A stretch of 64,000 nt of DNA from an uncultured Prevotellaceae bacterium (GCA_947165675.1 CAMVBJ010000002.1:45570-109569), one strand, 5' to 3'. Positions 39,939-59,617 are shown, numbered from the stretch's first letter. Numbers and translations are program-made. The notes: generated by a model not told the origin, from the sequence alone.

Positions 39939-40000
39939 TTGGAAATTAGTGATGATTATCGATGCTGTGGCTGTGCCATGGCTATAAAAGGATGTTAGAT

Positions 40001-40903: not shown

Positions 40904-40922
40904 GATAAACCATTTGTGCCTT

Positions 40923-43520: not shown

Positions 43521-43622
43521 TGATAGGAGGGTGCAAGCGGGTTGCTGAAAGGCCCCGTGAGTGAAACAAGAAACAATTAATAAACAACAAGACTCATAAA
43601 TAAAAAATAGGAGGTAATGATT

Positions 43623-44075
43623 ATGTATTTTCCTGTAATTCGTAACAACCGCAACAACTGGTTAGACACCGCATTTAATGACTTCTTTGACACCGACTGG
43701 ATGCCGCGCACGGCGACAACTGCTCCCGCTGTCAACGTTAAGGAGAGCGACAAGGCCTTCACGATGGAGGTCGCTGCCCCGGGTCTGAAAAAGGAATTTT
43801 GCAAGGTCAATATCAACGAGGATGGAAACCTGGTCGTCAAGATCGAGCACAAGGTCGAGCATGAGGACAAGGACTGCAAGGAGCAGGGCGAGAAGTGCCA
43901 TTACATCCGCCGTGAGTTCTCCTACACCAACTACGAGCAGACTTACATCCTGCCCGACGAGGTGGACAAGGAATCCATCAGCGCTAAGGTCGAGGACGGC
44001 GTCCTGACCATCGAGCTCCCGAAGGTGGCACCCGATCCCGTGAAAAAGATGGATCGTGCAATTGAGATTGGCTAA
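43623..44075 (+). CDS. Hsp20/alpha-crystallin small heat-shock protein
   Basis: PAVNVKE...EVAAPGL, RREFSY...LPDEVD...SAKVEDGVLTIELPK; AGGAGGT lies 7 nt before ATG 43623. Confidence 0.96.
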   Translation: MYFPVIRNNRNNWLDTAFNDFFDTDWMPRTATTAPAVNVKESDKAFTMEVAAPGLKKEFCKVNINEDGNLVVKIEHKVEHEDKDCKEQGEKCHYIRREFSYTNYEQTYILPDEVDKESISAKVEDGVLTIELPKVAPDPVKKMDRAIEIG

Positions 44076-44105: not shown

Positions 44106-44141
44106 AGGCTATCCGCTACTTGAGGGCGGATAGCCTTTTTT
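44106..44141 (+). terminator. Intrinsic terminator after hsp20
   Basis: AGGCTATCCGC / GCGGATAGCCT 11-bp stem plus T-run. Confidence 0.88.
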
Positions 44142-44363: not shown

Positions 44364-45224
44364 ATGGCAGGTAACAAAGGTCAAGATATTACCCTGATAG
44401 CTGAGAGCAGCACCACTCGCACCGAGTGGTCATTGATTAATAACGGAGAAGTGCTGGAGCACGCCTTCACTTCGGGATTGAACCCGTTTTTTATGACTCG
44501 TCGAGAGATCAGTCACAGTATCCGCTTGGAGCTGCCTCCTGAATTTTTTAAACGTCGCTGGAGCCATGTTTACTTCTATGGCGCTGGTTGCTCTGGCCCC
44601 GAGAAGAACAAGATCATTGAGTCGTCCCTGGTAGCGCAATTCAAGACGCCGGTGACGGTCGAGAGCGACCTGCTGGGGGCTGCACGGGGTTTGCTTGTGC
44701 GCGATACGGGTTTGGCGTGCATCCTGGGCACGGGTAGCAACTCTTGCCTGTATGATGGTACCAAGATTGTAAAGAATGTTCCCGCGCTGGGCTTCATCCT
44801 GGGGGATGAGGGCAGTGGGGCTGCATTGGGGCGTGTGTTCCTTGGGGATGCTCTCAAGGGGTTAGCTCCACATGTGTTGACCGAAGCCTTCTTTGATAAG
44901 TATCAGGTGACTCCTGCCGTAGTGCTTGACGCGGTGCTTAACAATCCGGCGGCGACCCGCAACCTGCGTGCCTATTCTTTCTTCTTGAGTGAGCATCTGG
45001 ACAACCCCTATGTGCACGACTTGATAGCTGGAGAATTCAAGCGTTTCTTTGAGCGCAACGTGGCGCAATATGACTACAAGAGTTATCCCGTCAACTTTGT
45101 CGGCCCCATCGCCACGACCTATAGCGAGATCCTGCTTGAGGTGGCACACGACTTCGGTGCTACGGTGAGGAAAATCGTCCTCAGCAGTATGCCCGGCTTG
45201 GTGGCTTACCACAGCGAGGCTTAG
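44364..45224 (+). CDS. BadF/BadG-type (ASKHA) amino-sugar kinase, copy 1
   Basis: YFYGAGC, SDLLGAAR, ACILGTGSNSC, GFILGDEGSGA. Confidence 0.88.
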   Translation: MAGNKGQDITLIAESSTTRTEWSLINNGEVLEHAFTSGLNPFFMTRREISHSIRLELPPEFFKRRWSHVYFYGAGCSGPEKNKIIESSLVAQFKTPVTVESDLLGAARGLLVRDTGLACILGTGSNSCLYDGTKIVKNVPALGFILGDEGSGAALGRVFLGDALKGLAPHVLTEAFFDKYQVTPAVVLDAVLNNPAATRNLRAYSFFLSEHLDNPYVHDLIAGEFKRFFERNVAQYDYKSYPVNFVGPIATTYSEILLEVAHDFGATVRKIVLSSMPGLVAYHSEA

Positions 45225-45480
45225 GGACTGCTTCTCCTGAGTTTAGGTCAACTTCAATATCATCGCCTATATTTTACTACAAGATTAATGCGCATTTCCC
45301 AGTCGCCAATAATCAGTTGCGTTAATTATAGCGAAATAAAGTATTTGGTGTTTTTCTTAAAAAGTGTAGTTGATTTATAAAAAATGTTATCGTAGGGCAA
45401 TTTAGACGGTTTTGTTTTGCTTTTTCATTTGGTTTGACTACTTTTGTTGCATTAGATAACGACAAAAAAAAGTATAACCG

Positions 45481-48400
45481 ATGAAGAAATCAAGCAAAGT
45501 GTTGTTGAGTGTCGTGGTGGCTGTGGCCGCCGCGATGCCCGTGTGTGCTCAGGATCAAGTGTTCACCCCCGAACAGCAGGAGACTGTGCAACGCATCGTG
45601 GCCTCGAAACTGCCCGAGCACATGGGCGTGGGCGACCTCAAGGTGCGCTCGCTCGTGCTGGAGAACGACACCGTCAAGGTTGACGTGAGCGAGAACTTCG
45701 GTGACGTGCCATTCACCCAAGAGGGTGTCGAGAAGATGCGCGACGAGATCCGTGACGCACTGGGCGGTGACTATCAAGACAGTCCGGTGTTGATCACCAT
45801 CGTGGGCAACGACATCAACAAGTACTTTGCCGACTATGAGCCAGCCTACAAACGCTCTCATGCACCCTTCATCAGCGAACTGGACGCCAATCGCCATTAC
45901 AAGCACGGCCTGGATGGCAACATCATCGCCATGTGGCCCAGCCATGGCTGGTATTTCGAGCCTAAGTTGAACCGTTGGGAGTGGCAGCGTGCCCGCCTGA
46001 TGCAGACTGTCGAGGACATGTACACCCACAGTTATGTGCTGCCGTTCCTCATCCCGATGCTGGAAAATGCGGGTGCATATGTGTGGAACGCACGCGAGCG
46101 AGACACCCACAACTATGGTGCCGTGGTCGATAACGACCCGAGCGAACTGGCTCAGCAAGGCTACAGCGAGCACAATGGCAAGCAGAAGTGGCAGGCTGGT
46201 AAGGGCGTTGGTTTTGCCTTCCTGCGTGACCAGTACAAGGACTTTGAGAATCCCTTTACCGAGGGCACTTACCGCATGGTCAAGGCCGAGAAGGACAAGA
46301 AGAAACTATCGACAGCCACGTGGGACGTGGAAATGCCCTATGCTGGCGACTACGCCATCTATATTTCCTATCAATCACTGCCCAATAGCGCCCGCGATGT
46401 GACCTATACCGTCAATAGCTTGGCTGGCAAGCGCCAGTTCCGTGTGGACCAGACGATGGCTGGTGGCGTGTGGGTCTATCTGGGAACCTTCCCGCTGGCC
46501 AAGGGCATGAACAAGGACGTCGTCGAGGTGTCCAACCTGAGTGAGGACAAGAACGCTGTCATCACCGCCGATGCCATCAGCGTGGGTGGCGGATATGGCA
46601 ACATTGCCCGCCGTGTGGCCCTGCCCACCGAGGAGAACCTGGCCATTGTCGCCGAGCAGAAGGCTCAGGGCGAGAACAACGAGTCCTGCCTGGGCAAGCC
46701 TGGCGTGGAGTACAGTTACATCGGCAGTGGCAACCATCCCTGGTTCCACCTGGGATCACGCTACTACTTGCAGTGGGCCGGTTTTCCTGACAGTGTCTAT
46801 TCCACCTCACGGGGCATCAACGACTATACCGACGACTACCGCAGCCGTGGCGAGTGGGTCAACTACCTGGCTGGTGGTAGTGACGTGCTGCCTGACCGTG
46901 GAGGCTTGAAGGTGCCCATCGACATGTCCTTCTGTCTGCACACCGATGCCGGCGCCACGCCCGACGACGAGACGGTGGGCACCCTGCTCATCTACTGCAC
47001 CAGAGCAAACGGTAAACAGTTCGGAAAATATGCCAACGGCACGCCGCGCGAACTCTCTCGTCGCCTGGCCAACCTGCTCTCGACCGAGATTGTCAAGGAC
47101 GTCAGAGCCAAGTGGGAACCCAACTGGACACGTCGTGGCATGTGGGACAAGAGTTACTACGAGGCCCGCGTGCCTGAGGTGCCCGCCGTGTTGATGGAGT
47201 TGCTCTCGCACCAGAATTTTGCCGACATGAAATATGGTCTGGATCCCATGTTCCGCTTCGACGTGAGCCGTGCTATCTACAAGGGTATGCTCAAGTTCAT
47301 CGCCCAGCGCGACCACCGCAGCTACGTCATCCAGCCGCTGCCCGTCAACAGCTTTGCCATCAATAAGACCAATGCACATCAATATCTGCTCACATGGAAC
47401 CCCACTCATGATGAACTGAGCGAGGGGGCTGATGCTACAGGATATATCGTGTGTGAACGTGTGGGTCTCGATGGCGGTTTCAAGGAAATTGCTACGGTCA
47501 AGTCCCCTCAGTACAGCGTGAACATCAATGACCACAAATTACATTCCTATCGTATCATCGCCATGAACGATGGCGGCCGCAGCTTCCCCAGCGAGGTGTT
47601 GAGCCTGGGTGAGGTGTCGTCGAGCAAGGGCGATGTGCTGGTGGTCAATGGCTTTACCCGTGTGAGCGGTCCTGACTGGTTTGAGGATACCACGCGTGCC
47701 GGCTTTGATGACAACAAGGATCATGGTGTACCCTACATCCAGCAGATCAATTACCTGGGCTCGCAGTATGAGTTCCGCCGCAGCATCGAGTGGAAGGATG
47801 ACGACTCGCCAGGCTTCGGTGCCAGCCGCAGCGACTATGAGACGATGAACATCGCCGGCAACAGCTTTGACTATCCGGCCGTGCATGGTGATGCGCTGAT
47901 GAATGCGGGCTACTCCTTTGTCTCGTGCAGTCAGCAAGCTCTGGAGAACGGCTACAACACGAGTGACTATCGTCTGATGGATCTGATCTTGGGTAAGCAG
48001 AAGGAAATATCGACCGGTAGTGGCTTGATGCCCACCCGCTTTAAGATTTATACCGCAGGTCTGATGAATGCCCTGCGTGACTTTACCGGTCGTGGTGGCA
48101 AAGTGCTGATGTCGGGCTCCTATGTGGGTAGCGACTTGTGGGACAACGCTGCTGGCAATAACGACTTGCAAGGACAGGCTTTTGTTAAGGATGTGCTCGG
48201 CTTTGAGGGATTAAACGGTCGCGCTTCGCTCGATGGAACAGTCATCTCGGTTAATTGTCCCGACCGTAACTTGGCCAAGGAAGGTGCATGGGAATTTGTC
48301 AACAAGTTGAACGACAGGCAGTATGCCGTGGAGTCGCCCGATGCCATCCGTGCAAGCGACAGCCGTGGCTTCACCTGGTTGCGCTACGGTGAGAACGGCC

Positions 48401-48528
48401 TGCCTGCTGCTATCGCCAGTGACCGTGGCGGTTATCGCACTGTCGTGCTTGGCTTCCCGCTGGAGGCCATGACCTACAGTACCGACTGCACCAGCTTGAT
48501 GCAGCGCATCTTGGAATACCTCAAGTGA
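45481..48528 (+). CDS. Large secreted Amidase_3-like protein with a golvesin/xanthan-lyase-CBM-like insertion and an FN3 domain (often annotated as xanthan lyase)
   Basis: Signal peptide; zinc-amidase-like PSHGW, TVED, LHTDAG, MELLSH; inserted beta-sandwich (ATWDVEMPYAGDYAIYISY...VITADAI); FN3-like LTWNPT...YRIIAMNDGGRSFPSE. Confidence 0.72.
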   Translation: MKKSSKVLLSVVVAVAAAMPVCAQDQVFTPEQQETVQRIVASKLPEHMGVGDLKVRSLVLENDTVKVDVSENFGDVPFTQEGVEKMRDEIRDALGGDYQDSPVLITIVGNDINKYFADYEPAYKRSHAPFISELDANRHYKHGLDGNIIAMWPSHGWYFEPKLNRWEWQRARLMQTVEDMYTHSYVLPFLIPMLENAGAYVWNARERDTHNYGAVVDNDPSELAQQGYSEHNGKQKWQAGKGVGFAFLRDQYKDFENPFTEGTYRMVKAEKDKKKLSTATWDVEMPYAGDYAIYISYQSLPNSARDVTYTVNSLAGKRQFRVDQTMAGGVWVYLGTFPLAKGMNKDVVEVSNLSEDKNAVITADAISVGGGYGNIARRVALPTEENLAIVAEQKAQGENNESCLGKPGVEYSYIGSGNHPWFHLGSRYYLQWAGFPDSVYSTSRGINDYTDDYRSRGEWVNYLAGGSDVLPDRGGLKVPIDMSFCLHTDAGATPDDETVGTLLIYCTRANGKQFGKYANGTPRELSRRLANLLSTEIVKDVRAKWEPNWTRRGMWDKSYYEARVPEVPAVLMELLSHQNFADMKYGLDPMFRFDVSRAIYKGMLKFIAQRDHRSYVIQPLPVNSFAINKTNAHQYLLTWNPTHDELSEGADATGYIVCERVGLDGGFKEIATVKSPQYSVNINDHKLHSYRIIAMNDGGRSFPSEVLSLGEVSSSKGDVLVVNGFTRVSGPDWFEDTTRAGFDDNKDHGVPYIQQINYLGSQYEFRRSIEWKDDDSPGFGASRSDYETMNIAGNSFDYPAVHGDALMNAGYSFVSCSQQALENGYNTSDYRLMDLILGKQKEISTGSGLMPTRFKIYTAGLMNALRDFTGRGGKVLMSGSYVGSDLWDNAAGNNDLQGQAFVKDVLGFEGLNGRASLDGTVISVNCPDRNLAKEGAWEFVNKLNDRQYAVESPDAIRASDSRGFTWLRYGENGLPAAIASDRGGYRTVVLGFPLEAMTYSTDCTSLMQRILEYLK

Positions 48529-48564
48529 CCTTAAAGACCTTAAAGACTTTAAGAACCTTTAAAG
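48529..48564 (+). repeat. Nonamer tandem repeat at a gene junction
   Basis: CCTTAAAGA CCTTAAAGA CTTTAAGAA CCTTTAAAG directly after the stop codon. Confidence 0.7.
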
Positions 48565-48615
48565 GAGAGACTGGACGATATCAACAACAATAATTATATA
48601 ACAACTACTACAATC

Positions 48616-50100
48616 ATGGGAAGAATTAATTGCTTTATTCCGTTTGCCAATGCCGAACAGGCGTCGCAAACCATCCAGAACCTTAAAGAACAGGAACTGG
48701 TGAATAAGATTTATCTCCTTGCTACTGAGGAAGGTGCTACTGCTGTCGATGGATGCGAACTCCTGCCCGTCAAGAGTCTGACCTCAAGCGCCACGATGCG
48801 CGCTATCGCCGAGCATGCCGATGCCGACTATGTACTGCTGTACACCAAGTATGACACCTTGAAGATGGGTCCCTTCTCGGTCGAGCGCTTTGCCAAGCTG
48901 GGTGATGACACTTGTGCCGGTATGCTCTATGCCGACCACTACAACGTGACCGATAAGGGCGCTGATAAAGCTCCCGTCATTGATTACCAGATGGGTAGCC
49001 TGCGTGACGACTTCGATTTTGGTTCAGTGATGTTCTTCTGTGGGCAATGCTTCAAGAAGGCTGCTGCTGCCATGAAGGCGGACTATGAATTTGCAGGACT
49101 GTATGACTTGCGCCTCAAGCTGTCGCAGTTTGCCCAGATCGTGCACATTAACGAGTTTCTATATAGCGATGTGGAACTTGATACCCGCAAGAGCGGTGAG
49201 AAAATCTTTGACTATGTTGACCCCCGCAACCGTGGTCGCCAGATCGAGATGGAACAGGCTTGCACCGAACACCTCAAGGAAGTGGGTGGTTATTTAGCCC
49301 CCACGCGTGTCGTCGATGGCAAGGAAGTGCCCAATTTCCGTCACATCGAGTTTGATAAGGGCGACTTCGAGGTCGAGGCAACGGTGATGATTCCCGTGCG
49401 CAACCGCATCCGCACCATCCGTGATGCTATCGACTCGGTGCTCAAGCAGGAGTGCAACTTCAAGTTTAACTTGATGGTTGTCGATAACTTCTCGACCGAT
49501 GGCACACGCGAAGCTATTGCCGAGTATAACGATCCGCGCTTGATCCACATCATCGCCGACTACTATGACATGGGCATCGGCGGTTATTGGAACCTGGCCG
49601 CCCACAGCAAGCGTGCCGGCAAGTTCATTGTGCAACTTGACAGCGATGACATGTACAAGGATGAGCACACCCTCCAGACGATGGTTGACGCTTTCTACGA
49701 GCAGAATGTAGCCATGGTTGTCGGCACTTACCAGATGACCGACATCCATCTCAATCCCATCCCCCCCGGCATCATCGACCACAAGGAGTGGACTCCCGAG
49801 AATGGCCGCAACAATGCCTTGCGCATCAACGGACTGGGTGCACCGCGCGCCTTCTACACGCCAGTATTGCGTGACGTCAAGATTCCCAACACGAGCTATG
49901 GCGAAGATTATGCGTTGGGCTTGAATATTTCGCGTCATTATCAGATTGGCCGTGTCTATACGCCAGTGTACTTGTGCCGCCGTTGGGACGATAACAGTGA
50001 CGCCTCGCTTGATGTCGAGAAGATGAACCGTAACAACCTATACAAGGACCGCATCCGCACCTGGGAACTCCAGGCGCGCATAGCGATGAATAAGCAATAA
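48616..50100 (+). CDS. Family 2 glycosyltransferase
   Basis: TVMIPVRNR, VVDNFSTDGT, QLDSDD (DxD), YGEDYALGL. Confidence 0.9.
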   Translation: MGRINCFIPFANAEQASQTIQNLKEQELVNKIYLLATEEGATAVDGCELLPVKSLTSSATMRAIAEHADADYVLLYTKYDTLKMGPFSVERFAKLGDDTCAGMLYADHYNVTDKGADKAPVIDYQMGSLRDDFDFGSVMFFCGQCFKKAAAAMKADYEFAGLYDLRLKLSQFAQIVHINEFLYSDVELDTRKSGEKIFDYVDPRNRGRQIEMEQACTEHLKEVGGYLAPTRVVDGKEVPNFRHIEFDKGDFEVEATVMIPVRNRIRTIRDAIDSVLKQECNFKFNLMVVDNFSTDGTREAIAEYNDPRLIHIIADYYDMGIGGYWNLAAHSKRAGKFIVQLDSDDMYKDEHTLQTMVDAFYEQNVAMVVGTYQMTDIHLNPIPPGIIDHKEWTPENGRNNALRINGLGAPRAFYTPVLRDVKIPNTSYGEDYALGLNISRHYQIGRVYTPVYLCRRWDDNSDASLDVEKMNRNNLYKDRIRTWELQARIAMNKQ

Positions 50101-50158
50101 GCATTGGGCCTCAGAGTGTTAGTGCGTGCCGTGACAGTGTCACAGTAACAGTGGAGAT

Positions 50159-51124
50159 ATGGCAATGGATTATAGCAAGACAATTAATCAGCTCTTTACC
50201 AGGCAACTGCGTGACTGGGATGTGGCTGGGCGCAACTATGCGGCGCTCGGCGATGCTGACGTGCGCACGTTGCAGTTAGGTGAGTCCACGATTATCCTGC
50301 AATATAACCCTGAACGCAGGCGCTCGTCGGCTGCTGCCATCGACAAGAAGTCGTTGTCGGGGCGCAAGTGTTTCTTGTGCACCGACCATCAGCCTGCACG
50401 GCAGAAGTCTATCCTGTGGGGTGACCACTACAAGATTCAGGTCAATCCTTATCCCATCTTCAGGCGCCACCTGACCATCGTTGACTTGAGTCACGTGCCG
50501 CAGCGCTTGGCTGGAAGGGTAGGGGACATGTTGCGACTTGCCGAAGAATTGCCCGATTTTGTCATCTTCTACAATGGTCCCAAGTGCGGAGCTTCTGCTC
50601 CCGATCATGCTCATTTCCAGGCTGGAGCCAAGGGCGAAATGCCCTTGTGTGACGAGATACTGCATGCTACAATTCACCTGCTTGCCGATGGTGATGAGGG
50701 ATTCATCGGTTACTCACGCGAGTTGGGCCGCGGCCTCTTTACTATCGAGACGACCACGATGCGTACAGCCGAGCGTTATATCCTGCGTCTGCTGGACTTG
50801 CTACCGCAACCTGATGGGGCTGATGAGCCCATGGTCAACGTGCTGTGCTGGTGGGATAAGACCGACCACGTGTATCGAACGGCCGTTTTCCCACGGCGCA
50901 AGCACCGCCCTGCCTGCTATGGAGAGGGCGAGGGGCGCTTGCTCGTTAGCCCTGGTTCGACCGAGATGGGTGGCTTGTGGGCTGTTCCGTTGAAGGAGGA
51001 TTTTGACGCGCTCACTGCTGGGCGTGTCCAGGCATTGTATGACGAGCTATGCTTGAGTAGTGATGATATAGCGGCTGTCTTAAATGGCTATAGTCAGCGC
51101 TGGGACAATCCAGTTATTATTTAA
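50159..51124 (+). CDS. DUF4922 protein, HIT/GalT-like nucleotidyl phosphorylase fold
   Basis: QYNPERRRSS, CFLC, VNPYPIF..HLTI, FYNGPKCGASAPDHAHFQ (HxHxQ). Confidence 0.82.
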   Translation: MAMDYSKTINQLFTRQLRDWDVAGRNYAALGDADVRTLQLGESTIILQYNPERRRSSAAAIDKKSLSGRKCFLCTDHQPARQKSILWGDHYKIQVNPYPIFRRHLTIVDLSHVPQRLAGRVGDMLRLAEELPDFVIFYNGPKCGASAPDHAHFQAGAKGEMPLCDEILHATIHLLADGDEGFIGYSRELGRGLFTIETTTMRTAERYILRLLDLLPQPDGADEPMVNVLCWWDKTDHVYRTAVFPRRKHRPACYGEGEGRLLVSPGSTEMGGLWAVPLKEDFDALTAGRVQALYDELCLSSDDIAAVLNGYSQRWDNPVII

Positions 51125-51148
51125 GTTACATATTAAATCGGTAATATA

Positions 51149-52483
51149 ATGGAAAATAAGCAGATTCCTCAAGTGAGGGTGGGCATCATGAATGAACCGA
51201 TGCTCGATGTGGTGTTCAATGGCAACTACCGCGTGAATGGCATGGTTTGTAGTGGTGAGCATCACGTGGCATGTGTGAACGGGCGTGTCGAGTGGAATGG
51301 GCAGCAAAGTGATGAATTGCTGTTTGAACCGATGGATACCGAGGCGGCATCGTTTACTCTCAAGGCTGTGACTATCGGCGTGAGTTTCCACTGGAAACGT
51401 CAGGAGGATCAGACCTTCAAGGGCGCCCTTCACATCATCGTTGAGGATGGCAAGTTGACGCCAGTCAATGTGCTGAGTGTTGAGGACTACCTGTTGAGCG
51501 TTATCTCCAGCGAGATGAGCGCTAACGCTTCGCTTGAACTCTTGAAGGCTCATGCCGTGATTTCACGTAGCTGGCTTCTGGCACAGATTAACACCGAGGA
51601 GACTGTTCATCCCGACGACCGCAATCCTCTTGCTCCTGGTGAAATGATGGATACTCCCGAGGAACTGGTCAAGTGGTGGGACCGTGACGATCACGTCAAC
51701 TTTGACGTGTGTGCCGACGACCACTGCCAGCGCTATCAGGGTATCACCCGCGCCACGACCGACAAGGTAGAGCAGGCCATTCGCTCCACATGGGGACAGG
51801 TGCTCATGCACGGCGGCGCTCTGTGTGACGCCCGCTTCAGCAAGTCGTGCGGCGGCGTGATGGAGGAGTTTGAGAACTGCTGGGAACCGCATCATCACGA
51901 CTACCTGGAGGCGCGTCGTGACGGCAAGGATGAGGCCGATTTTCCCGACCTCACGCGCGAGGACAATGCTGCCGAGTGGATCCTTTCCAGTCCCAGTGCC
52001 TTCTGTAACACGACCGACCCCGCAATCCTCTCCCAAGTCTTGAATGACTACGACCAGGAGACCAAGGACTTCTATCGCTGGAAGGTGGAATATACCCAAG
52101 AGGAACTTGCCCACCTGATTCATGAGCGTACGGGTATTGACTATGGACGTATCCGTGACCTGCAACCCGTGGCTCGTGGCACCAGTGGCAGGCTATATCG
52201 CTTGCGCATCGTCGGTGAGAAGCAGGAACGCATCATCGGCAAGGAACTGACTATCCGCTACGCCTTGTCTCCCTCGTGCTTGTACAGTTCGGCCTTTGTC
52301 GTTGAGAAGCATGGCGTGGGCGAGGATGGCTATCCTGCCAAGTTTGTCCTTCGCGGGGCAGGCTGGGGACATGGTGTGGGGCTTTGCCAGATAGGCGCCG
52401 CCGTGATGGGTGCTCAGGGCTATGACTACAAGCAGATCCTGCTGCACTACTTCGTGGGCGCCACAATCGAGAAACGATACTAA
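51149..52483 (+). CDS. SpoIID/LytB-domain lytic transglycosylase
   Basis: EDYLLSVISSEM, ELLKAHAVISRS, DVCADDHCQRYQG, GWGHGVGLCQIGA. Confidence 0.92.
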   Translation: MENKQIPQVRVGIMNEPMLDVVFNGNYRVNGMVCSGEHHVACVNGRVEWNGQQSDELLFEPMDTEAASFTLKAVTIGVSFHWKRQEDQTFKGALHIIVEDGKLTPVNVLSVEDYLLSVISSEMSANASLELLKAHAVISRSWLLAQINTEETVHPDDRNPLAPGEMMDTPEELVKWWDRDDHVNFDVCADDHCQRYQGITRATTDKVEQAIRSTWGQVLMHGGALCDARFSKSCGGVMEEFENCWEPHHHDYLEARRDGKDEADFPDLTREDNAAEWILSSPSAFCNTTDPAILSQVLNDYDQETKDFYRWKVEYTQEELAHLIHERTGIDYGRIRDLQPVARGTSGRLYRLRIVGEKQERIIGKELTIRYALSPSCLYSSAFVVEKHGVGEDGYPAKFVLRGAGWGHGVGLCQIGAAVMGAQGYDYKQILLHYFVGATIEKRY

Positions 52484-52512
52484 TGATAATCCCTTAAAAA
52501 ACTAACAATACA

Positions 52513-53838
52513 ATGGATCAAGTGACTAAAAGAAGAACTCCGTGGCTATGGATTCCTACGCTCTATTTTGCTGAGGGAATTCCTTACTTCGTTGTGAATA
52601 ATATCTCGGTGCTGATGCTGGCCAAGATGGGTGTCCCCAACGGCCAGATGGCACTGTTTACCAGCTTGCTTTACCTGCCATGGACCATCAAACCCTTCTG
52701 GAGCCCGTTTGTGGATATCATCCGCACCAAGCGATGGTGGACCATCGGCATGCAGGTGCTCATGAGCATCGCGTTCATCCTGCTCACGCTGACGATGCCC
52801 AAGCCCGACGCCGCTACTATTGCATCAGGGCAGACACCCATCAGTATGTTTGCCGTCACGCTAATCCTGTTTGTGATCACAGCATTCGCGTCAGCAACCC
52901 ACGACATTGCTGCCGATGGCTTCTACATGCTGGCCCTGCGGCAAAACGAGCAGGCGGCCTTTGTGGGCATCCGTAGCACGTTCTACCGCTTGTCGTCCAT
53001 CTTTGGCCAGGGCGTGCTCGTGGCCATTGCGGGTGCCATCGAGCTCAAGAACGGCAACATCCCCATGTCATGGACCATCACGATGGGCGTGGCTGCGGTG
53101 CTGTTCAGTGTGATCACGTTATATCACACCTTTGCGATTCCCAGGGTGCAGAATGATGCCTCTACCCTAAAGGATGAAAAACCCACCGCAGGCGCGATCT
53201 TCAAGGAGTTTGGTCGTACGTTTGTGACCTATTTCACTAAGCCTTATGTGTGGCTTGCCATTGTCTTCATGCTGTTGTACCGCTTGCCCGAGGCCTTCTT
53301 GATCAAGATGTGTACGCCATTTCTTGTCGCTGCCAAGGGTGTCGGCGGGTTGGGACTTTCCACCGCCGAGGTTGGCATCGTCTATGGCACCATCGGTGTG
53401 TTAGCATTGACCATCGGTGGCATCCTGGGCGGACTGTTTGCCGCACGGGTGGGTCTGAAGAAATCGCTGTGGTGGATGGCAGCCTGCATGACGTTGCCAT
53501 GTGCTACATTTGTTTATCTTGCCGTTTGCCAACCGACCAATTTGGTCGCAATCTCGGTGGCTATCGCTATTGAGCAGTTTGGTTACGGCTTTGGCTTCAC
53601 GGCCTACATGCTGTACATGATTTACTTCAGCGAGGGCGAGTTTAAGACGTCCCATTATGCCATCTGCACAGCTTTCATGGCACTGAGCATGATGATTCCA
53701 GGCATGTTCGCCGGCTACATTCAGGAGGCGATAGGCTATGCCAACTTCTTCTGGATGGTAATGGTTTGCTGCATCGCTACGTTGATTGTCACCTATCTCG
53801 TTGACCGCCGCATCGACCCCAACTACGGCAAGAAATAA
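52513..53838 (+). CDS. AmpG-like MFS muropeptide transporter
   Basis: LYFAEGIPY, LPWTIKPFWSPFVD, SATHDIAADG; about 12 TM helices. Confidence 0.88.
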   Translation: MDQVTKRRTPWLWIPTLYFAEGIPYFVVNNISVLMLAKMGVPNGQMALFTSLLYLPWTIKPFWSPFVDIIRTKRWWTIGMQVLMSIAFILLTLTMPKPDAATIASGQTPISMFAVTLILFVITAFASATHDIAADGFYMLALRQNEQAAFVGIRSTFYRLSSIFGQGVLVAIAGAIELKNGNIPMSWTITMGVAAVLFSVITLYHTFAIPRVQNDASTLKDEKPTAGAIFKEFGRTFVTYFTKPYVWLAIVFMLLYRLPEAFLIKMCTPFLVAAKGVGGLGLSTAEVGIVYGTIGVLALTIGGILGGLFAARVGLKKSLWWMAACMTLPCATFVYLAVCQPTNLVAISVAIAIEQFGYGFGFTAYMLYMIYFSEGEFKTSHYAICTAFMALSMMIPGMFAGYIQEAIGYANFFWMVMVCCIATLIVTYLVDRRIDPNYGKK

Positions 53839-53854
53839 CTCAACTCTTTTTAAA

Positions 53855-53883
53855 AAACAACTGAATTTTCTGAGTTTTCTGAA
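53855..53883 (+). repeat. Left inverted repeat of the GxxExxY cassette (nonamer-periodic)
   Basis: AAACAACTGAATTTTCTGAGTTTTCTGAA; 27/29 identical to the reverse complement of 54273..54301. Confidence 0.85.
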
Positions 53884-53886
53884 TTC

Positions 53887-54303
53887 ATGACCAATTATTT
53901 ATATCAAAAAGAGACCTATTCAATAAGAGGATGTTTGAATGCTGTATACCAGGAGCTGGGCAGCGGTTTTCTTGAGAAAGTTTATCAAGAAGCTCTTGAA
54001 ATAGAATTTATGGATAGAGGCATACCTTTTAAGCGAGAGGTAAAATTGGATATTTCCTATAAAGGAAGAGTTTTAAAACAGGAGTATATTGCCGATTTTG
54101 TATGTTTTGATAAAATAATTGTCGAACTCAAGGCTGTTTCAAACTTAGATGAAGTACATGATGCTCAAGTATTCAATTATTTGAAGGCCACAGGATATGA
54201 TTTAGCCCTTCTTGTGAATTTTGGTGAGAAGCCGCTCAGAATTAAGAGATTGTTCAACTTCATGAAGAAAAGTTCAGAAAATTCAGATAATTCAGTTGTT
54301 TAA
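53887..54303 (+). CDS. GxxExxY protein (PD-(D/E)XK nuclease-like)
   Basis: LGSGFLEKVYQEAL signature, ADFVCFDKIIVELKA, LLVNFG; visibly more AT-rich than the flanking genes. Confidence 0.95.
   Translation: MTNYLYQKETYSIRGCLNAVYQELGSGFLEKVYQEALEIEFMDRGIPFKREVKLDISYKGRVLKQEYIADFVCFDKIIVELKAVSNLDEVHDAQVFNYLKATGYDLALLVNFGEKPLRIKRLFNFMKKSSENSDNSVV
54273..54301 (-). repeat. Right inverted repeat of the GxxExxY cassette
   Basis: TTCAGAAAATTCAGATAATTCAGTTGTTT; encodes the C-terminal SENSDNSVV of the ORF. Confidence 0.85.
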
Positions 54304-54334
54304 AAACAGTTGTTGAATATAATAATTGATGTTT

Positions 54335-55591
54335 ATGAAGAAGATATTTTTAGCAATCATTGTGAGTGTGCTGGCGGTGGTGACGGCAGGGGCCGTCGTC
54401 AAGCCAGGTGTCGAAGTGCTGCGTGACGGCGGTTTCAAGCCGCTGCAGGGCAAGCGCGTGGGGCTCGTTACCAACCCCAGCGGCATTGACAACAATCTGA
54501 AGAGTACTGTTGACATCCTCAACGAGGCTCCTGGAGTCGAGCTGGTAGCGCTGTTTGGTCCTGAGCATGGTGTCCGTGGCAATGCCCATGCTGGTGATGC
54601 CGTGGGTGATGCTGTTGACCCCATCACGGGTATCAAGATGTACTCGCTGTTCGGCAAGACCCACGAACCCACGGCCGAGATGTTGCGTGACATCGATGTG
54701 CTGGTCTATGACATCCAGGATGTGGGTTGTCGCAGCTACACGTTCTATGCCACGATGGGTGTGTGTATGCAGGCTTGTGCCAAGCACGGTACCGAGTTCA
54801 TGGTGCTGGACCGCCCCAATCCGCTGGGCGGCAACAAGGTGGAGGGTAACCTGGTGGAACCTGGCTATTTCTCGTTTGTCAGTAAATATGCCATCCCCTA
54901 TATCTACGGTTTGACACCTGGCGAACTGGCGATCTTCCTCAACGAGGAGGGCATCATCGGTCAGGAGTCCAAGACTGGCCGCAAGTGCAAGCTCACCGTC
55001 ATCCCCATGCAGGGCTGGACGCGAGATATGAAGTTCCGCGACACGGGTATGCCTTGGGTGGCAACCTCACCTCAGATTCCCACGCCCGAGAGTGCCTTCT
55101 TCTATCCTGTGTCGGGCATCCTGGGTGAACTCTACATCTTTAATACGGGCATCGGCTACACATTGCCGTTCCAGACGTTTGCCGCTTCATGGATCAATGC
55201 CGACTCGCTGGCCATGCGCATGAACGCTTTGAACCTGCCAGGTATGCACTTCCGGCCCATCAATTACAAGCCTTTCTTTGCACTGAGCGTAGCCGTTGAC
55301 AAGACATTACAAGAGGTGCACGGTGTGCAGACTTACATTACCGACCCTGACGCTGCCAACCTGTGCCTGACGCAGTTCTACTTCTTGCAAGTCATCCACG
55401 AGATGTACCCTGGGGTGCAACTGTTCGAGCAGAATGCCAAGCGGTATAACATGTTTGACAAGGTGTGCGGTACCAAGGAGATTCGTGAGCGCTTTATCCA
55501 GCGCTATCGCGTCGAGGACATTGCCGCCTACTGGAACAAGGACGTGGACGTCTTCCGCATCCGTTCAGCCAAATACTACCTGTATAAGTAA
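54335..55591 (+). CDS. namZ: Exo-beta-N-acetylmuramidase NamZ (DUF1343)
   Basis: GLVTNPSG, LFGPEHGVRG, YDIQDVGCRSYTF, LDRPNP; signal peptide. Confidence 0.9.
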   Translation: MKKIFLAIIVSVLAVVTAGAVVKPGVEVLRDGGFKPLQGKRVGLVTNPSGIDNNLKSTVDILNEAPGVELVALFGPEHGVRGNAHAGDAVGDAVDPITGIKMYSLFGKTHEPTAEMLRDIDVLVYDIQDVGCRSYTFYATMGVCMQACAKHGTEFMVLDRPNPLGGNKVEGNLVEPGYFSFVSKYAIPYIYGLTPGELAIFLNEEGIIGQESKTGRKCKLTVIPMQGWTRDMKFRDTGMPWVATSPQIPTPESAFFYPVSGILGELYIFNTGIGYTLPFQTFAASWINADSLAMRMNALNLPGMHFRPINYKPFFALSVAVDKTLQEVHGVQTYITDPDAANLCLTQFYFLQVIHEMYPGVQLFEQNAKRYNMFDKVCGTKEIRERFIQRYRVEDIAAYWNKDVDVFRIRSAKYYLYK

Positions 55592-55621
55592 AGTGATTAA
55601 CCAGACAAGCGCTTGACAATC

Positions 55622-56782
55622 ATGGCTAAAGAGAATAAAAGATTGCTGTCACTTGACATCCTGCGTGGTATCACCATCGCGGGCATGTTGCTCGTGAATA
55701 ATCCTGGCACATGGAGTTACCTGTACCGCCCGCTTGAGCACGCTGAATGGATTGGGCTGACGCCCACCGACTTGGTGTTCCCGTTCTTCATCTTCTGCAT
55801 GGGTGTGTCGATGGCCTTCTCGCTCAAGAAGTTCAACTACAAGCTGTCCGGTCCGTTGATGTGGAAAATAGTGCGTCGTGCTGTCATTTTGTTCCTCATC
55901 GGTTGGGCTGTACAGTGGTTTGGCCACCTGGTGCGTGGCCTGTGCAAGGGTGACCCCTTCAGCGAGGCTGTGAACAATATTGACACGTTGCGCTACTTGG
56001 GTGTATTCCAGCGACTGGCGCTGACCTACTTCTTCGGCTCGCTGTGCGTGGCATTGTTCAACCGCAAGTTCATCCCGTGGCTTGTCGGCTTCATACTTCT
56101 CGCCTATGCTCTGATTCTGGGACTGGGGCACGGTTATGAGTTCTCACTCGACAACATCATTGCTCAGATCGACAATAGCGTGCTGGGCACCGATCACATG
56201 TACCACGAGAGCGCCTATGGCGAGAGCATCTCGTTTGACCCCGAGGGAATCTTGAGTACCCTGCCGTGCATTGCTCATGTGCTCATCGGCTATCTGGTGG
56301 GTCGCATGATTCTCTCGGTCCACAACAATACTGAGCGCGTGACCACGATGCTGCTGTGGGGCACCGTGATACTGCTGGTCGGCTGGCTGTTGCAGTATGG
56401 CATCCCCTGTGGCAAGAAGATGTGGTCATCGACATTCGTGATGATCACCTGTGGCATGGCGATGTGTATCCAGGCCATGCTCATCCACTTTGTTGACATG
56501 AAGGGGCATAAGGGCAGTTGGGCCAGGTTCTTCGAGTCCTTTGGCGTCAATCCGTTAGCCATCTATCTGATAGGTACCATTCTGGCCATCTTGTTTGGCG
56601 CAATTCCATTAGGACACAATGCCGATGGTGATACCGTTACCATTCACAGTGCGGTTTACAATTTCTTCTTGTCGTTCTGCAACGAGTACACGGCATCGGC
56701 ACTATATGCCATCTCGTTTGTGCTGCTCAACTGGGCCATTGGTCACGTCCTGTACAAGAAGAAAATCTTCATCAAGATATAA
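55622..56782 (+). CDS. HGSNAT/NagX-like (DUF5009) membrane acetyltransferase
   Basis: RLLSLDILRG...LVNNPG, TPTDLVFPFF, GVFQRLAL, FDPEGILST, KKMWSSTF. Confidence 0.88.
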   Translation: MAKENKRLLSLDILRGITIAGMLLVNNPGTWSYLYRPLEHAEWIGLTPTDLVFPFFIFCMGVSMAFSLKKFNYKLSGPLMWKIVRRAVILFLIGWAVQWFGHLVRGLCKGDPFSEAVNNIDTLRYLGVFQRLALTYFFGSLCVALFNRKFIPWLVGFILLAYALILGLGHGYEFSLDNIIAQIDNSVLGTDHMYHESAYGESISFDPEGILSTLPCIAHVLIGYLVGRMILSVHNNTERVTTMLLWGTVILLVGWLLQYGIPCGKKMWSSTFVMITCGMAMCIQAMLIHFVDMKGHKGSWARFFESFGVNPLAIYLIGTILAILFGAIPLGHNADGDTVTIHSAVYNFFLSFCNEYTASALYAISFVLLNWAIGHVLYKKKIFIKI

Positions 56783-56874
56783 TCCATCCCACAACAGGGT
56801 CAACGTGTGCAGTGGCTCCGTTGCTGCAACACAACTAACAGCTAACGATAACTAACAACTAATAACCAAATATT

Positions 56875-57723
56875 ATGATGATACTTATTGCAGATTGCGG
56901 CTCCACCAAGATTAACTGGACGCTGCTCAACGGAAAAGAAAAGGTAGCTCAAATCTTCACTACCGGCATGAATGCCCTCCTGCTCACCGAGGAGGAAATG
57001 AAGGAACAAATCAAGCGTGAGTTGATGCCTCACTTGACCAATTATAAAGTGGACGAAATCCATTACTATGGTGCTGGCATCATTTCGGACGAAATCAAGC
57101 AGCAGGTGGTCAATGCCCTGCGTGCCAACTTTGCCAGTGCGGGCAAGATTGAAGTGGCCAGTGACCTGCTCGCAGCGGCACGTGCCGTGTGTGGCCGTGA
57201 GCCTGGTATCGCTTGCATCCTGGGCACGGGTAGCAATTCGTGCTACTACGATGGCGAAAAAGTGGTGATGAATGTCTCCCCCCTGGGCTATATCCTGGGC
57301 GACGAGGGCAGTGGTGCTGTCCTGGGCAAGCTGCTCGTGGGCGATGTGTTGAAGAAGCAGTTGCCTCATCACCTGTGCGTCAAGTTCATGAAGGAGTATA
57401 ACCTGGACTATACGACTATCATCACGTCGGTTTACCGCAAGCCTGCTGCCAATCGTTTCCTGGCGCAGTTCGCTCCCTTCCTGGAACGCAACATCGATGA
57501 ACCTGCAATCCACAACATCGTGTTCCGCTCGTTCACCGACTTCTTTACCCGCAATGTAGCCAGCTACCCCAACTACAAGCTCTTGCCGTGCAACTTTGTC
57601 GGTTCGATCGCACTGTGCGAGAAGGCGGTGCTCAAGGAAGCTGCCGAAGCCTTAGGCATTACAATCGGTTCCATCATCAAGGACCCGATGGAGGGCTTGG
57701 TGAAGTACCACTCAGCGCAGTAG
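56875..57723 (+). CDS. BadF/BadG-type amino-sugar kinase, copy 2 (MurK-like)
   Basis: LIADCGSTK, HYYGAG, ACILGTGSNSC, GYILGDEGSGA; directly upstream of murQ. Confidence 0.88.
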   Translation: MMILIADCGSTKINWTLLNGKEKVAQIFTTGMNALLLTEEEMKEQIKRELMPHLTNYKVDEIHYYGAGIISDEIKQQVVNALRANFASAGKIEVASDLLAAARAVCGREPGIACILGTGSNSCYYDGEKVVMNVSPLGYILGDEGSGAVLGKLLVGDVLKKQLPHHLCVKFMKEYNLDYTTIITSVYRKPAANRFLAQFAPFLERNIDEPAIHNIVFRSFTDFFTRNVASYPNYKLLPCNFVGSIALCEKAVLKEAAEALGITIGSIIKDPMEGLVKYHSAQ

Positions 57724-57824
57724 TAGGGTGGGGCTGCGCCTCAGCGTGGCCCTGAGAAATGGAAATTACGCTTCGTTTTGTAACGGCGTGATGATAGTAG
57801 AAGAATAAAAATTTGATATAGATT

Positions 57825-58646
57825 ATGGCATTTGTGAAAATCAGCGAACAAGAGTCGCTTTACGATAACCTGGAAAAGAAGTCGGTGCACGAGATTCTCA
57901 CCGAGATCAACCAGGAGGACCACAAGGTGGCCGATGCCGTGCAGCAAGCAATTCCGCAGATCGAGAAACTCGTCACGGGCATCGTCGAGCGTATGAAGAA
58001 GGGAGGCCGCATCTTCTATATGGGTGCGGGCACCAGTGGCAGGCTTGGCGTGCTCGACGCCAGTGAGATACCGCCCACATTCGGCATGTCGCCGGGATGG
58101 ATCATCGGTCTGATTGCTGGTGGTGACGTCGCACTGCGCAATGCGGTCGAGAATGCTGAGGATGACACCGAGCAGGGGTGGAAAGACTTGCAGGAGCATA
58201 GAATCACGCCACTCGACACCGTCATCGGCATCGCCGCATCGGGGACGACTCCCTATGTCATCGGTGCCCTGCGTGATGCCCGGGCCAATGGCTGCCTCAC
58301 CGCTGCCATCACCAGCAATCCTGGTGCCCCGGTCAGCGAGGTCGCCGAGATTCCCATCGAGATGATTGTCGGTCCTGAATATGTCACAGGCAGTTCCCGC
58401 ATGAAGAGCGGAACAGGACAGAAGCTCATCTGCAACATGATCTCGACCAGTGTGATGATACAGATGGGGCGTGTCAAGGGCAATAAGATGGTCAACATGC
58501 AGTTGACCAACCAGAAGCTTGTGGACCGTGGTACCCGCTGGATCGTCGAGGAACTCAAGCTCCCCTACGACGACGCCAAGCGCCTGCTCCTGCTCCACGG
58601 TTCGGTCAAGAAGGCCATCGACGCCTATCGTGGTGTCAATAGTTAA
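57825..58646 (+). CDS. murQ: N-acetylmuramic acid 6-phosphate etherase
   Basis: GAGTSGRLG.LDASEIPPTFG, GIAASGTTPYV, GPEYVTGSSRMKSGTGQKL. Confidence 0.96.
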   Translation: MAFVKISEQESLYDNLEKKSVHEILTEINQEDHKVADAVQQAIPQIEKLVTGIVERMKKGGRIFYMGAGTSGRLGVLDASEIPPTFGMSPGWIIGLIAGGDVALRNAVENAEDDTEQGWKDLQEHRITPLDTVIGIAASGTTPYVIGALRDARANGCLTAAITSNPGAPVSEVAEIPIEMIVGPEYVTGSSRMKSGTGQKLICNMISTSVMIQMGRVKGNKMVNMQLTNQKLVDRGTRWIVEELKLPYDDAKRLLLLHGSVKKAIDAYRGVNS

Positions 58647-58761
58647 GGGGATTTCTGTAAATGTTTTATTATTAATTTCGTGTAATTAGTCTAATTAGCG
58701 AAATTAGCGTTAAAAACTTTTAAGGGACAACAGCTATATCGTTCCCTTTATAGAAGTCCCC
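58647..58761. mobile_element. 115-bp MITE-like element with TIRs of the same family as 34780..35021
   Basis: GGGGATTTCTGTAAA ... TTTATAGAAGTCCCC (13/15 inverted match); the right end equals the reverse complement of the first 15 bp of the 34780 element; flanks TTAA/TCAG are not a clean target duplication. Confidence 0.62.
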
Positions 58762-58788
58762 TCAGGGTGTGGTTGTTTCTAACCACCT

Positions 58789-58824
58789 CCAGTAAGTTCA
58801 GTTTATCCAGTAAATCCAGTCTCT
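58789..58824 (+). repeat. Nonamer tandem repeat upstream of the SGNH gene
   Basis: CCAGTAAGT TCAGTTTAT CCAGTAAAT CCAGTCTCT. Confidence 0.6.
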
Positions 58825-58826
58825 CA

Positions 58827-59483
58827 ATGAGAAGAATAGCAATCCTGGCCGTGATGGCACTCATGTGCCTCACGGCTCTGGCCCAGCAGGCCAACCAAGA
58901 CCCCTACTATGCACGTCGTACCACCTTGTTCGACGAGCTGCCCATCGGCAAGAAGGACATCGTCATGCTCGGCAACAGCCTCACTGACGGCTGCGAGTTC
59001 AACGAGTTGCTGGGCAACCGTCACATCAAGAACCGTGGCATTGTCGGCGACATCATCCAGGGCCTCATCGATCGCATCGGTCCCATCATCAAGGGGCAGC
59101 CCAAGAAACTGTTCATCATGAGCGGAGTCAACGATATCTCCCACGATGTCAGCGCCGACAGCATCGCCCGTGCGATGGAGAAGCTCATCGTCATGGTCAA
59201 GCAAGGCTCCCCGCGAACCAAGATTTACCTCCAGAGCCTGCTCCCCTTCAACAACGACGTGCGCGAGTGGAAACTGCTCAAGGGGCGTGACCACGTCGTC
59301 GTCGAGGCCAATGCCCTGCTCGAACAAGTTGCCCGCCGCCAGGGCGTCACGTGGATCAACCTCTACCCCCTGTTCGTTGACGACCAGGGTCGCCTCCGCG
59401 CCGACCTCACCAACGACGGCCTCCACCTCATGGGCAAGGGCTACCTCATCTGGCGCGACGCCATCAAGCCATACATCAAGTAA
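58827..59483 (+). CDS. SGNH/GDSL-family esterase
   Basis: Signal peptide; blocks GNSLT, NRGIVGD, GVND, NDGLH. Start placed at MRRIAI. Confidence 0.88.
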   Translation: MRRIAILAVMALMCLTALAQQANQDPYYARRTTLFDELPIGKKDIVMLGNSLTDGCEFNELLGNRHIKNRGIVGDIIQGLIDRIGPIIKGQPKKLFIMSGVNDISHDVSADSIARAMEKLIVMVKQGSPRTKIYLQSLLPFNNDVREWKLLKGRDHVVVEANALLEQVARRQGVTWINLYPLFVDDQGRLRADLTNDGLHLMGKGYLIWRDAIKPYIK

Positions 59484-59589
59484 GGCACCAAGTGCCACAA
59501 GGCAGGTTGCAGCTTCAGCGCCCCCCTCGCCCTCAGCGTCAGTGTGTGCAGCGCAATAGGTGCAGCCCATCATCCTCAGAGTTATAGTG

Positions 59590-59617
59590 TGCAGCGGCTT
59601 TGTCGCTGCATTTTTTT
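59590..59617 (+). terminator. Intrinsic terminator ending the peptidoglycan recycling operon
   Basis: TGCAGCG / CGCTGCA stem followed by T7. Confidence 0.8.

Follow-up and report, generated by a model that had tools for sequence, protein, structure and literature searches.

We analyzed a 64,000-nt window of DNA from an uncultured bacterium (GCA_947165675.1, CAMVBJ010000002.1:45570-109569), in which an uninterrupted + strand series of peptidoglycan (PG) genes runs from 44364 to 59483. This locus is very probably the Muribaculaceae ortholog of a PG salvage/recycling operon of Bacteroidales that is known from Tannerella forsythia (Tanf_08345-08385, together with the kinase K1058). The operon is not a new system, and the local copy is largely ordinary. 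What sets this lineage apart is the addition of secreted accessory enzymes to the known operon and the lack of glmS, with which amino-sugar synthesis usually begins.

Gene order and transcription-unit anatomy

Genes were called from a listing of open reading frames (ORFs) combined with Pfam and NCBIfam scans, and positions are numbered from the start of the whole window (Table 1). The initial annotation had described a one-strand run with two more amidases just upstream, and every gene it named was recovered on the + strand by these scans. However, its list omitted three genes of the run, which encode a family 2 glycosyltransferase (GT2), a DUF4922 protein, and a PDDEXK_3 protein, and an Hsp20 gene stands between the upstream amidases and the run.

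Table 1. Genes and signals of the PG locus and its upstream neighbors, in window coordinates
Feature	Position	Strand	Evidence or remark
BadF-type kinase, K1058 ortholog	44364-45224	+	PDB match 8OQK/8OW7
1015-aa secreted Amidase_3-fold protein (XL1015, predicted), operon gene 1	45481-48528	+	AlphaFold2 model, signal peptide
GT2 glycosyltransferase	48616-50100	+	Glycos_transf_2 E 3e-18
DUF4922 HIT/GalT-like protein	50159-51124	+	PF16269 199 bits
SpoIID/LytB homolog	51149-52483	+	TIGR02669 164 bits
AmpG-family permease of the major facilitator superfamily (MFS)	52513-53838	+	TIGR00901 176 bits
PDDEXK_3 (GxxExxY-type) insert gene	53887-54303	+	PF13366 140 bits
NamZ (GH171) exo-beta-N-acetylmuramidase	54326-55591	+	NamZ_N 279 bits + NamZ_C
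HGSNAT/NagX/DUF5009-family membrane protein, MurT slot	55613-56782	+	NF046061 132 bits
BadF-type kinase MurK, N-acetylmuramic acid (MurNAc) 6-kinase	56875-57723	+	PDB match 8OQW/8OW9
MurQ, MurNAc-6-phosphate etherase	57825-58646	+	NF003915 371 bits, TIGR00274 310 bits, both above cut-off
SGNH/GDSL esterase with signal peptide, final gene before terminator	58767-59483	+	PF13472 81 bits
Candidate Bacteroidetes -7 promoter box TACTTTTG	45439-45446	+	42 nt 5' of XL1015, pattern search
Terminator-like hairpin	59589-59611	+	10-pair stem, 6 G-C pairs, then TTTTTTT
645-aa secreted Amidase_3 protein, upstream accessory	38001-39938	+	Pfam Amidase_3 E 2e-13
313-aa secreted protein, partner of the amidase that follows	39962-40903	+	Synteny
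Amidase_3 + CarboxypepD_reg + Big_5 + type IX secretion system (T9SS) sorting domain	40914-43337	+	Pfam, TIGR04183
Hsp20	43617-44075		Between upstream amidases and PG run

Searching the + strand for the Bacteroidetes -7 box pattern (TAnnTTTG) placed boxes before the first upstream amidase (37954), the K1058 ortholog (44224 and 44287), XL1015 (45439), and the next locus (59662), with none in the intergenic gaps of 45481-59483. Apart from the hairpin that follows the esterase, the only strong + strand hairpin with a T-run was found at 44106-44136, 3' of hsp20. Because a promoter box and a terminator mark the two ends, none lies in the gaps, and the genes of the run are separated by only 21-120 nt, 45439-59611 fits a single predicted transcription unit that includes the esterase, with K1058 under its own promoter. 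A sigma-70 promoter scan returned 25 matches, which were set aside, as this method is ill-suited to Bacteroidales.

Some of the listed ORFs open on TTG or GTG, and the likely true starts of NamZ and the MurT-slot gene are the first ATG a few codons inside, while the esterase likely starts at the first ATG ~20 codons inside. Signal-like N-termini were present on XL1015 (70/76 orthologs), NamZ (79/83), the esterase (9/9), and the amidases. By contrast, GT2, the DUF4922 protein, both kinases, and MurQ had no N-terminal signal, and the SpoIID-like protein lacked one in 73 of its 77 orthologs.

Orthology to the Tannerella forsythia operon

In T. forsythia, nine genes (Tanf_08345-08385) form one transcription unit (bioRxiv 10.1101/2021.12.02.470905, PMC7670621, PMC5388701), in the order "xanthan lyase", Gtf, Gtf, LytB, AmpG, NamZ1, MurT, MurK, and MurQ (bioRxiv 10.1101/2021.12.02.470905), and the kinase K1058 lies upstream, on the opposite side of the operon from MurK (PMC10465942). 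Apart from the PDDEXK_3 insert, 45481-58646 reproduces this published order. The initial annotation had pointed to a likeness with MurNAc scavenging in T. forsythia, and the relationship proved closer than stated: this is an orthologous nine-gene operon in the same order, with K1058 in front. This analysis established the gene identities, orthology, synteny, predicted localization, and the amidase fold of XL1015.

To place the locus among its relatives, we ran a profile search of genome contigs with an alignment of DUF4922 homologs and annotated the best 80 named loci, none of them from Tannerella, with the window proteins across 10-kb flanks. The order XL1015, GT2, DUF4922, SpoIID, AmpG, NamZ, MurT-slot, MurK, MurQ was collinear wherever the contigs reached. 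Array-bearing loci came from many Muribaculaceae metagenome-assembled genomes (MAGs), Sodaliphilus, Bacteroides fragilis, B. graminisolvens, B. oleiciplenus, B. ihuae, B. stercoris, Mediterranea, Dysgonomonas, and Odoribacter. Because the same order recurs in 80 loci of several families, the clustering is not due to chance. The gene before the operon was NamZ2-like in Bacteroides and a K1058 ortholog in Muribaculaceae. Among 150 Muribaculaceae genomes at least 90% complete, 134 carried the DUF4922 marker, as did 28 of 29 genera; its best protein and locus matches identify the host itself as a rumen or gut Muribaculaceae. Given that the operon was already known, its presence here mainly confirms that the "scavenging" cluster of T. 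forsythia is general equipment of Bacteroidales.

The individual catabolic genes agree with this assignment. The window NamZ found its best PDB match in 4K05 (BfNamZ1, E 1e-150), vs. 4e-48 for 4JJA (NamZ2), and BfNamZ1 groups with TfNamZ1 (bioRxiv 10.1101/2021.12.02.470905); by these matches it is of the NamZ1 type, and its signal peptide predicts that it is secreted. For MurK, the best solved relative was T. forsythia MurK (8OQW/8OW9, E 1e-90), and the window protein keeps the S-P-L patch ("...VSPLGY...") that has been tied to lactyl-ether recognition (PMC10465942). The K1058 ortholog matched 8OQK/8OW7 best (E 1e-99), with MurK second (2e-69), and the two window kinases are paralogs with 42% identity. 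The MurT-slot protein is polytopic, and the earlier assignment of it to the HGSNAT family was right, as shown by NF046061 and by ESM Atlas clusters carrying HGSNAT_cat/DUF5009. Its gene stood directly 5' of MurK in each locus reaching that far, and this position and conserved synteny predict that it is MurT, the MurNAc importer.

The first gene, the counterpart of Tanf_08345, was compared by structure. An AlphaFold2 model of XL1015 based on 35 orthologs (pLDDT 87.8, pTM 0.91) was aligned with VIA-align, and residues ~140-611 superposed on PG amidases, including 4RN7 (Z 18.6), CwlD (7RAG, Z 18.2), and Escherichia coli AmiA (8C2O, Z 17.2). Overall, Z ranged from 16 to 18.6, with 175-190 residues aligned at 2.1-2.9 Å. 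From residue 620 to the C-terminus at 1015, the protein consists of FN3 and GATase1-like domains. The sequence searches gave less: the Pfam Amidase_3 match was below cut-off (22.8 vs. 27 bits), and the FN3 domain was the only match in the PDB. The sole likeness of an inserted beta-sandwich at residues 208-372 was to the C-terminal domain of a Paenibacillus xanthan lyase (6F2P, Z 17.5), and it is this match that explains the database name "xanthan lyase". We rejected that function, since the catalytic core is Amidase_3 and only the 165-residue insert resembles the 6F2P domain.

With the insert removed, the XL1015 motifs PSHGWY, FCLHTDA, and LMELLSHQ aligned with PGHGGY, YSIHSNA, and LSEGSFHD of both upstream Amidase_3 proteins. 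H155, E178, H487, and E573 were invariant in the 35 orthologs; motif alignment placed H155, H487, and E573 as candidates for two zinc ligands (His) and the catalytic Glu, and E178, the putative second zinc ligand, was picked by eye. From fold and motifs, we infer that XL1015 is a secreted enzyme of the Amidase_3 fold that has kept its catalytic motifs, and we predict that it is a MurNAc-L-Ala amidase. A secreted amidase would fit in a unit with NamZ because NamZ1 acts on peptide-free glycan strands, and NamZ-type enzymes need non-reducing MurNAc ends (bioRxiv 10.1101/2021.12.02.470905). A gene named "xanthan lyase" thereby gains a testable function, that of a secreted amidase supplying peptide-free strands for NamZ1.

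Three conserved genes follow that appear to act in the cytoplasm. GT2, the counterpart of the Tanf_08350/08355 "Gtf" and collinear in all loci, is a soluble two-domain protein with Glycos_transf_2 at residues 256-388 and neither a transmembrane segment nor a signal peptide. The DUF4922 protein is nucleotidyl-transferase/phosphorylase-like, with weak GalT matches and an invariant HxHFQ region, and is cytoplasmic by sequence. Its identity to the nearest relatives (L015-L022) was only 70-74%, vs. 87-93% for its operon neighbors. In the SpoIID-like protein, the SEM catalytic-Glu motif and a C-terminal GHGVG motif align with SpoIID (4RWR), and there is no transmembrane segment. Because the catalytic Glu motif is kept and an export signal is absent, this protein looks like an active enzyme retained in the cytoplasm, next to AmpG and two nucleotide-sugar-type enzymes. 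AnmK was not detectable in the host genome, and T. forsythia likewise lacks it. Given a SpoIID-like protein that looks active and cytoplasmic and no detected AnmK, the trio is a candidate for the cytoplasmic handling of imported disaccharides.

AmpG, a multi-pass membrane protein in the slot of Tanf_08365, is the predicted importer of disaccharides or muropeptides. In the nearest relatives (L015-L033), ampG fell into two allele classes with full-length identities of 94-95% vs. 67-69%; the SpoIID and NamZ genes on either side were 87-93% identical in those relatives, and AmpG of L023, L029, and L030, which belong to farther genera, was 80-82% identical. This pattern suggests that ampG was replaced by recombination. 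The PDDEXK_3 gene at the ampG-namZ site is missing in most relatives and present in L021 and L022, the former with a second copy 3' of murQ. It is an insertion and stands outside the pathway.

Secreted accessory enzymes and lineage differences

For the esterase behind murQ, the best solved relative is 6NJC (E 8e-62 over residues 45-237), which bears the name "sialate O-acetylesterase", and EstA enzymes of gut Bacteroides take 9-O-acetyl groups off sialic acids (PMC5512079). Among its PDB matches at E ≤ 0.01, no chain was named as a peptidoglycan O-acetylesterase, although the window esterase shares the SGNH fold class with such enzymes and could be weakly related to them. In keeping with a role apart from the operon, the T. 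forsythia operon ends at murQ (PMC5388701), and the window esterase found no match in B. graminisolvens or B. ihuae at E ≤ 1e-10. On these grounds the esterase could be an EstA-type sialate O-acetylesterase for host glycans, a neighbor unrelated to the operon, just as the upstream amidases, separated from it by Hsp20 and a terminator, could be division or autolysis enzymes placed there by accident. Still, we find this explanation rather doubtful. The esterase lies within the same terminator-bounded unit as the operon, and of the 11 fetched loci that extend 400 nt or more past murQ, 9 carry a homolog behind it. In eight more loci, the esterase start was visible before the fetched DNA ended, with identity down to 41%. 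The linkage also extends to lineages in which the protein is 41-47% identical, including an Odoribacter MAG and B. oleiciplenus, where it forms part of a 623-aa ORF. Moreover, a NanA-type lyase was undetected in the host genome, and other lineages likewise have the amidase pair ahead of K1058 or the operon.

The esterase is thus EstA-like by sequence and at the same time a candidate de-O-acetylase of PG, an idea that is reasonable but unproven. Its linkage to murQ in many lineages makes it a candidate to clear O-acetyl groups at C6 of MurNAc, the position that MurK phosphorylates.

Of the upstream proteins, the first carries Amidase_3 in its C-terminal half behind a signal-like hydrophobic N-terminal segment, and the 313-aa protein had no Pfam or NCBIfam match. 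The third matched the T9SS sorting domain TIGR04183 at 32.1 bits (cut-off 23) and has the motifs PGHGGY, SIHSN, and SEGSFHD, from which we predict a MurNAc-L-Ala amidase that is exported or sits at the cell surface. If it acts beyond the outer membrane, it cannot reach the cell's own sacculus. In ~17 loci, homologs of this amidase and the 313-aa protein, with 25-73% identity, stand ahead of K1058 or the operon.

Between namZ and the MurT-slot gene, most lineages carry a further gene (~950 aa; e.g., L055:14811-17669; ~55 loci) with the domains FAD_binding_4, FAD-oxidase_C, Fer4, and CCG. Because MurQ releases D-lactate, an FAD/Fe-S protein of this kind would be a sensible partner, and it probably oxidizes that product. 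A 1335-aa ORF of L074 joins it to the MurT-slot protein. The gene is absent from this site in the window's genus, but a 61%-identical, D-lactate-dehydrogenase-like copy (987 aa) lies on C44, another host contig. At a distance of 8.5 kb, this contig encodes a second NamZ that is 35% identical to the window NamZ and is followed by an SSF sodium:solute symporter. The same neighborhood (L095:5215-17960) also encodes a WYL regulator, an integrase, a CotH+dockerin protein, and two beta-lactamase-family proteins resembling 3-succinylated cholic acid synthase (547 and 288 bits, below cut-off). Type I dockerin C-termini occur on two secreted proteins, the CotH-domain protein (L095:13214-14863) and a leucine-rich repeat protein in the window (35143-37857).

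Amino-sugar supply, wall sources, and related systems

To judge what the operon supplies, we examined the rest of the host assembly (3.12 Mb, 73 contigs, 98% complete) for the genes of amino-sugar synthesis that the initial annotation had proposed to check. Both murA (428 bits) and murB (220 bits) were present above their cut-offs and adjacent on contig C4; therefore, the organism is not a MurNAc auxotroph. The same strand of C4 (L011, L004, L006) reads GH109-like oxidoreductase, 362-aa APH-family kinase, murB, murA, and a sugar-kinase-like gene immediately 5' of murB/murA is unusual. The glm genes gave a different picture: glmS was undetected, a GlmM-like mutase scored below its family cut-off (166 bits), and no GlmU match exceeded the TIGR01173 cut-off, the best being a MurU-like gene at 45 bits. 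On contig C13 (L012:1423-3644), an APH + RapZ C-terminal kinase of 487 aa with weak AmgK matches lies directly 5' of a MurU-like uridylyltransferase gene (142 bits to NF045761). The genome also encodes nagA, one short nagB, and one long nagB-like gene.

The absence of glmS was consistent across methods and relatives. There was no TIGR01135 match in the host, only two SIS proteins, and no tblastn match with GlmS from the same order. None of 18 congeneric genomes had glmS above the family cut-off, whereas among other families of the order it was found in 11 of 12, and eight further congeneric genomes (96-99% complete) also had none above cut-off. Across the family, glmS was found in 58 of the 150 Muribaculaceae genomes and, of the 50 genomes whose operons are most similar to this one (completeness not known), in 5; three of the nearest relatives sharing the upstream amidase do carry it. 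Without glmS, glucosamine-6-phosphate (GlcN-6-P) must come from NagB running toward synthesis or from salvaged N-acetylglucosamine (GlcNAc) and MurNAc. The operon is therefore likely one of few inputs to the GlcN-6-P pool in this genus. However, glmS loss was rejected as the reason for the operon, since the operon marker occurs in glmS-positive and glmS-negative genera alike. A literature search on glmS loss in Muribaculaceae found no relevant paper. More than half of the good Muribaculaceae genomes, including the whole host genus, thus lack glmS while murA and murB are kept. Such bacteria must use reverse NagB or salvage, which bears on the culturing of these abundant gut and rumen bacteria and on cross-feeding between them.

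Drawing on T. forsythia biochemistry, substrate could flow through the operon as follows. Secreted XL1015 and, outside the cell, the T9SS amidase would strip peptides from glycan strands, and the secreted esterase may take off O-acetyl groups. NamZ would free GlcNAc-MurNAc or MurNAc at non-reducing ends, after which AmpG would import disaccharides and the HGSNAT-like MurT-slot protein would import MurNAc. MurK would then convert MurNAc to MurNAc-6-phosphate (MurNAc-6-P), MurQ would split this into GlcNAc-6-phosphate (GlcNAc-6-P) and D-lactate, and NagA and NagB, encoded elsewhere, would lead on to glycolysis or the amino-sugar pool. The AmgK-like/MurU-like pair could also route MurNAc directly to UDP-MurNAc, and because this branch is in the genome, the flux would not be purely catabolic.

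Where the wall material comes from is a separate question. The initial annotation read the locus as a polysaccharide utilization locus (PUL)-like system for eating bacterial cell wall, arguing that the array was more than self-recycling seems to need. In line with that proposal, a complete catabolic branch and two importers are encoded together with exported amidases and a secreted exo-muramidase and esterase; the second NamZ and D-lactate-dehydrogenase-like gene on C44 and the T. forsythia precedent also agree with it. Yet the size of the array alone is no evidence of predation because it is equally present alongside full de novo pathways: the core is standard in Bacteroidales that make their own MurNAc, from the 134 of 150 Muribaculaceae above to this host with its murA and murB. 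Nor does the locus have the hallmarks of a PUL. Pfam scans of the likely-gene ORFs at 19806-63999 (long ORFs on the + strand and one on the - strand, with other ORFs unscanned) found no SusC/SusD pair in the locus or its flanks. Among the same genes there was no hybrid two-component system (HTCS), extracytoplasmic function (ECF) sigma/anti-sigma factor, or SusR, although no search was aimed at a distant GppX-like regulator. Before 35143 lie genes for Nuo and ATP synthase, and past 59483 G+C drops from ~0.52-0.54 to 0.38-0.39 as a polysaccharide-type locus starts. Together with the lack of an endo-acting muramidase in the run and the anabolic AmgK/MurU-like branch, this makes a dedicated system for eating foreign wall improbable.

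At the other extreme, the operon could be housekeeping only, like AmpG/NagZ/AnmK/MurQ in E. coli, salvaging what the cell itself turns over in its periplasm, with no role on foreign wall. The ordinary signal peptides on XL1015 and NamZ fit the periplasm, and the near-universal array in Muribaculaceae, also found in Bacteroides, with or without glmS, is what such a role would give, as are the host murA and murB and the lack of a nearby SusC/SusD pair or regulator. However, the T9SS-sorted amidase acts past the outer membrane and recurs upstream in many Muribaculaceae, and the orthologous genes let T. forsythia grow on exogenous MurNAc, muropeptides, and intact PG (PMC5388701). The peptide-free strands with non-reducing MurNAc ends that NamZ-type enzymes require also fit poorly with self-recycling, and the missing glmS gives salvage a value beyond economy. 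We regard a purely internal role as rather unlikely. Instead, the operon probably serves the cell's own turnover products and the shed muropeptides of neighbors alike. Foraging on foreign wall is plausible by analogy with T. forsythia, and some evidence favors use of wall material from outside: the T9SS amidase, an O-acetylesterase-type SGNH enzyme in the unit, and the missing glmS of the genus.

Several points weigh against the salvage interpretation as a whole. For this organism, its support consists of sequence, synteny, and a predicted model, and the locus encodes nothing that would carry polymeric wall through the outer membrane. The MurT assignment follows from position and conserved synteny, and papers differ on the superfamily of MurT (Tanf_08375) ("sodium symporter" and "MFS" in PMC5790795, "novel family" in PMC7670621). 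AmpG scored 176 bits against a TIGR00901 subfamily cut-off of 350, the nearest characterized relative of the esterase works on sialic acid rather than MurNAc, and the conserved GT2, DUF4922, and SpoIID-like genes have no place in the scheme.

A more specific and, in our judgment, unlikely proposal would bring these features together. In GlmS-less Muribaculaceae, the operon would be a SusC/SusD-free core for harvesting amino sugars: the T9SS amidase and its partner would attack foreign wall outside the cell, the esterase would be a MurNAc 6-O-acetyl esterase opening O-acetylated Gram-positive wall, and the trio would carry out the cytoplasmic GlcNAc-(anh)MurNAc steps in place of NagZ/AnmK.

Compared with known systems, the locus resembles several in part. 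EstA of gut Bacteroides (PMC5512079; PDB 6NJC) is secreted and a close sequence relative of the window esterase, but the latter lies behind murQ rather than with nan genes, in a genome where a NanA-type lyase was undetected. As in Sus-like PULs of Bacteroidales, secreted glycan-processing enzymes, importers, and cytoplasmic catabolic enzymes are co-located; unlike them, the window has no SusC/SusD pair, surface glycan-binding lipoproteins, or HTCS/ECF/SusR sensor among the genes scanned. The E. coli AmpG/NagZ/AmpD/AnmK/MurQ pathway shares AmpG-type import followed by MurQ and GlcNAc-6-P. By contrast, AnmK was not found in this host, the locus encodes no cytoplasmic NagZ or AmpD, and the conserved GT2/DUF4922/SpoIID-like trio adjoins ampG. 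The Bacillus subtilis murQRP-amiE-nagZ-namZ operon likewise joins NamZ, an amidase, MurNAc uptake, and MurQ (bioRxiv 10.1101/2021.12.02.470905). There, however, the phosphotransferase system (PTS) transporter MurP both takes up and phosphorylates the sugar, AmiE has a beta-lactamase fold, and NagZ is present, whereas in the window, uptake falls to AmpG and the HGSNAT-like protein, phosphorylation to MurK, and the amidase is of the Amidase_3 fold.

The closest counterpart is the T. forsythia operon, which shares the nine genes in order, the upstream K1058 ortholog, the NamZ1/BfNamZ1 type of NamZ, and the S-P-L patch of MurK, with MurK and K1058 each matching its own crystal structure best. The window differs in that its host has murA and murB and is not a MurNAc auxotroph, and in carrying a PDDEXK_3 gene between ampG and namZ, an EstA-like SGNH esterase behind murQ in the same unit, and a T9SS amidase pair upstream.

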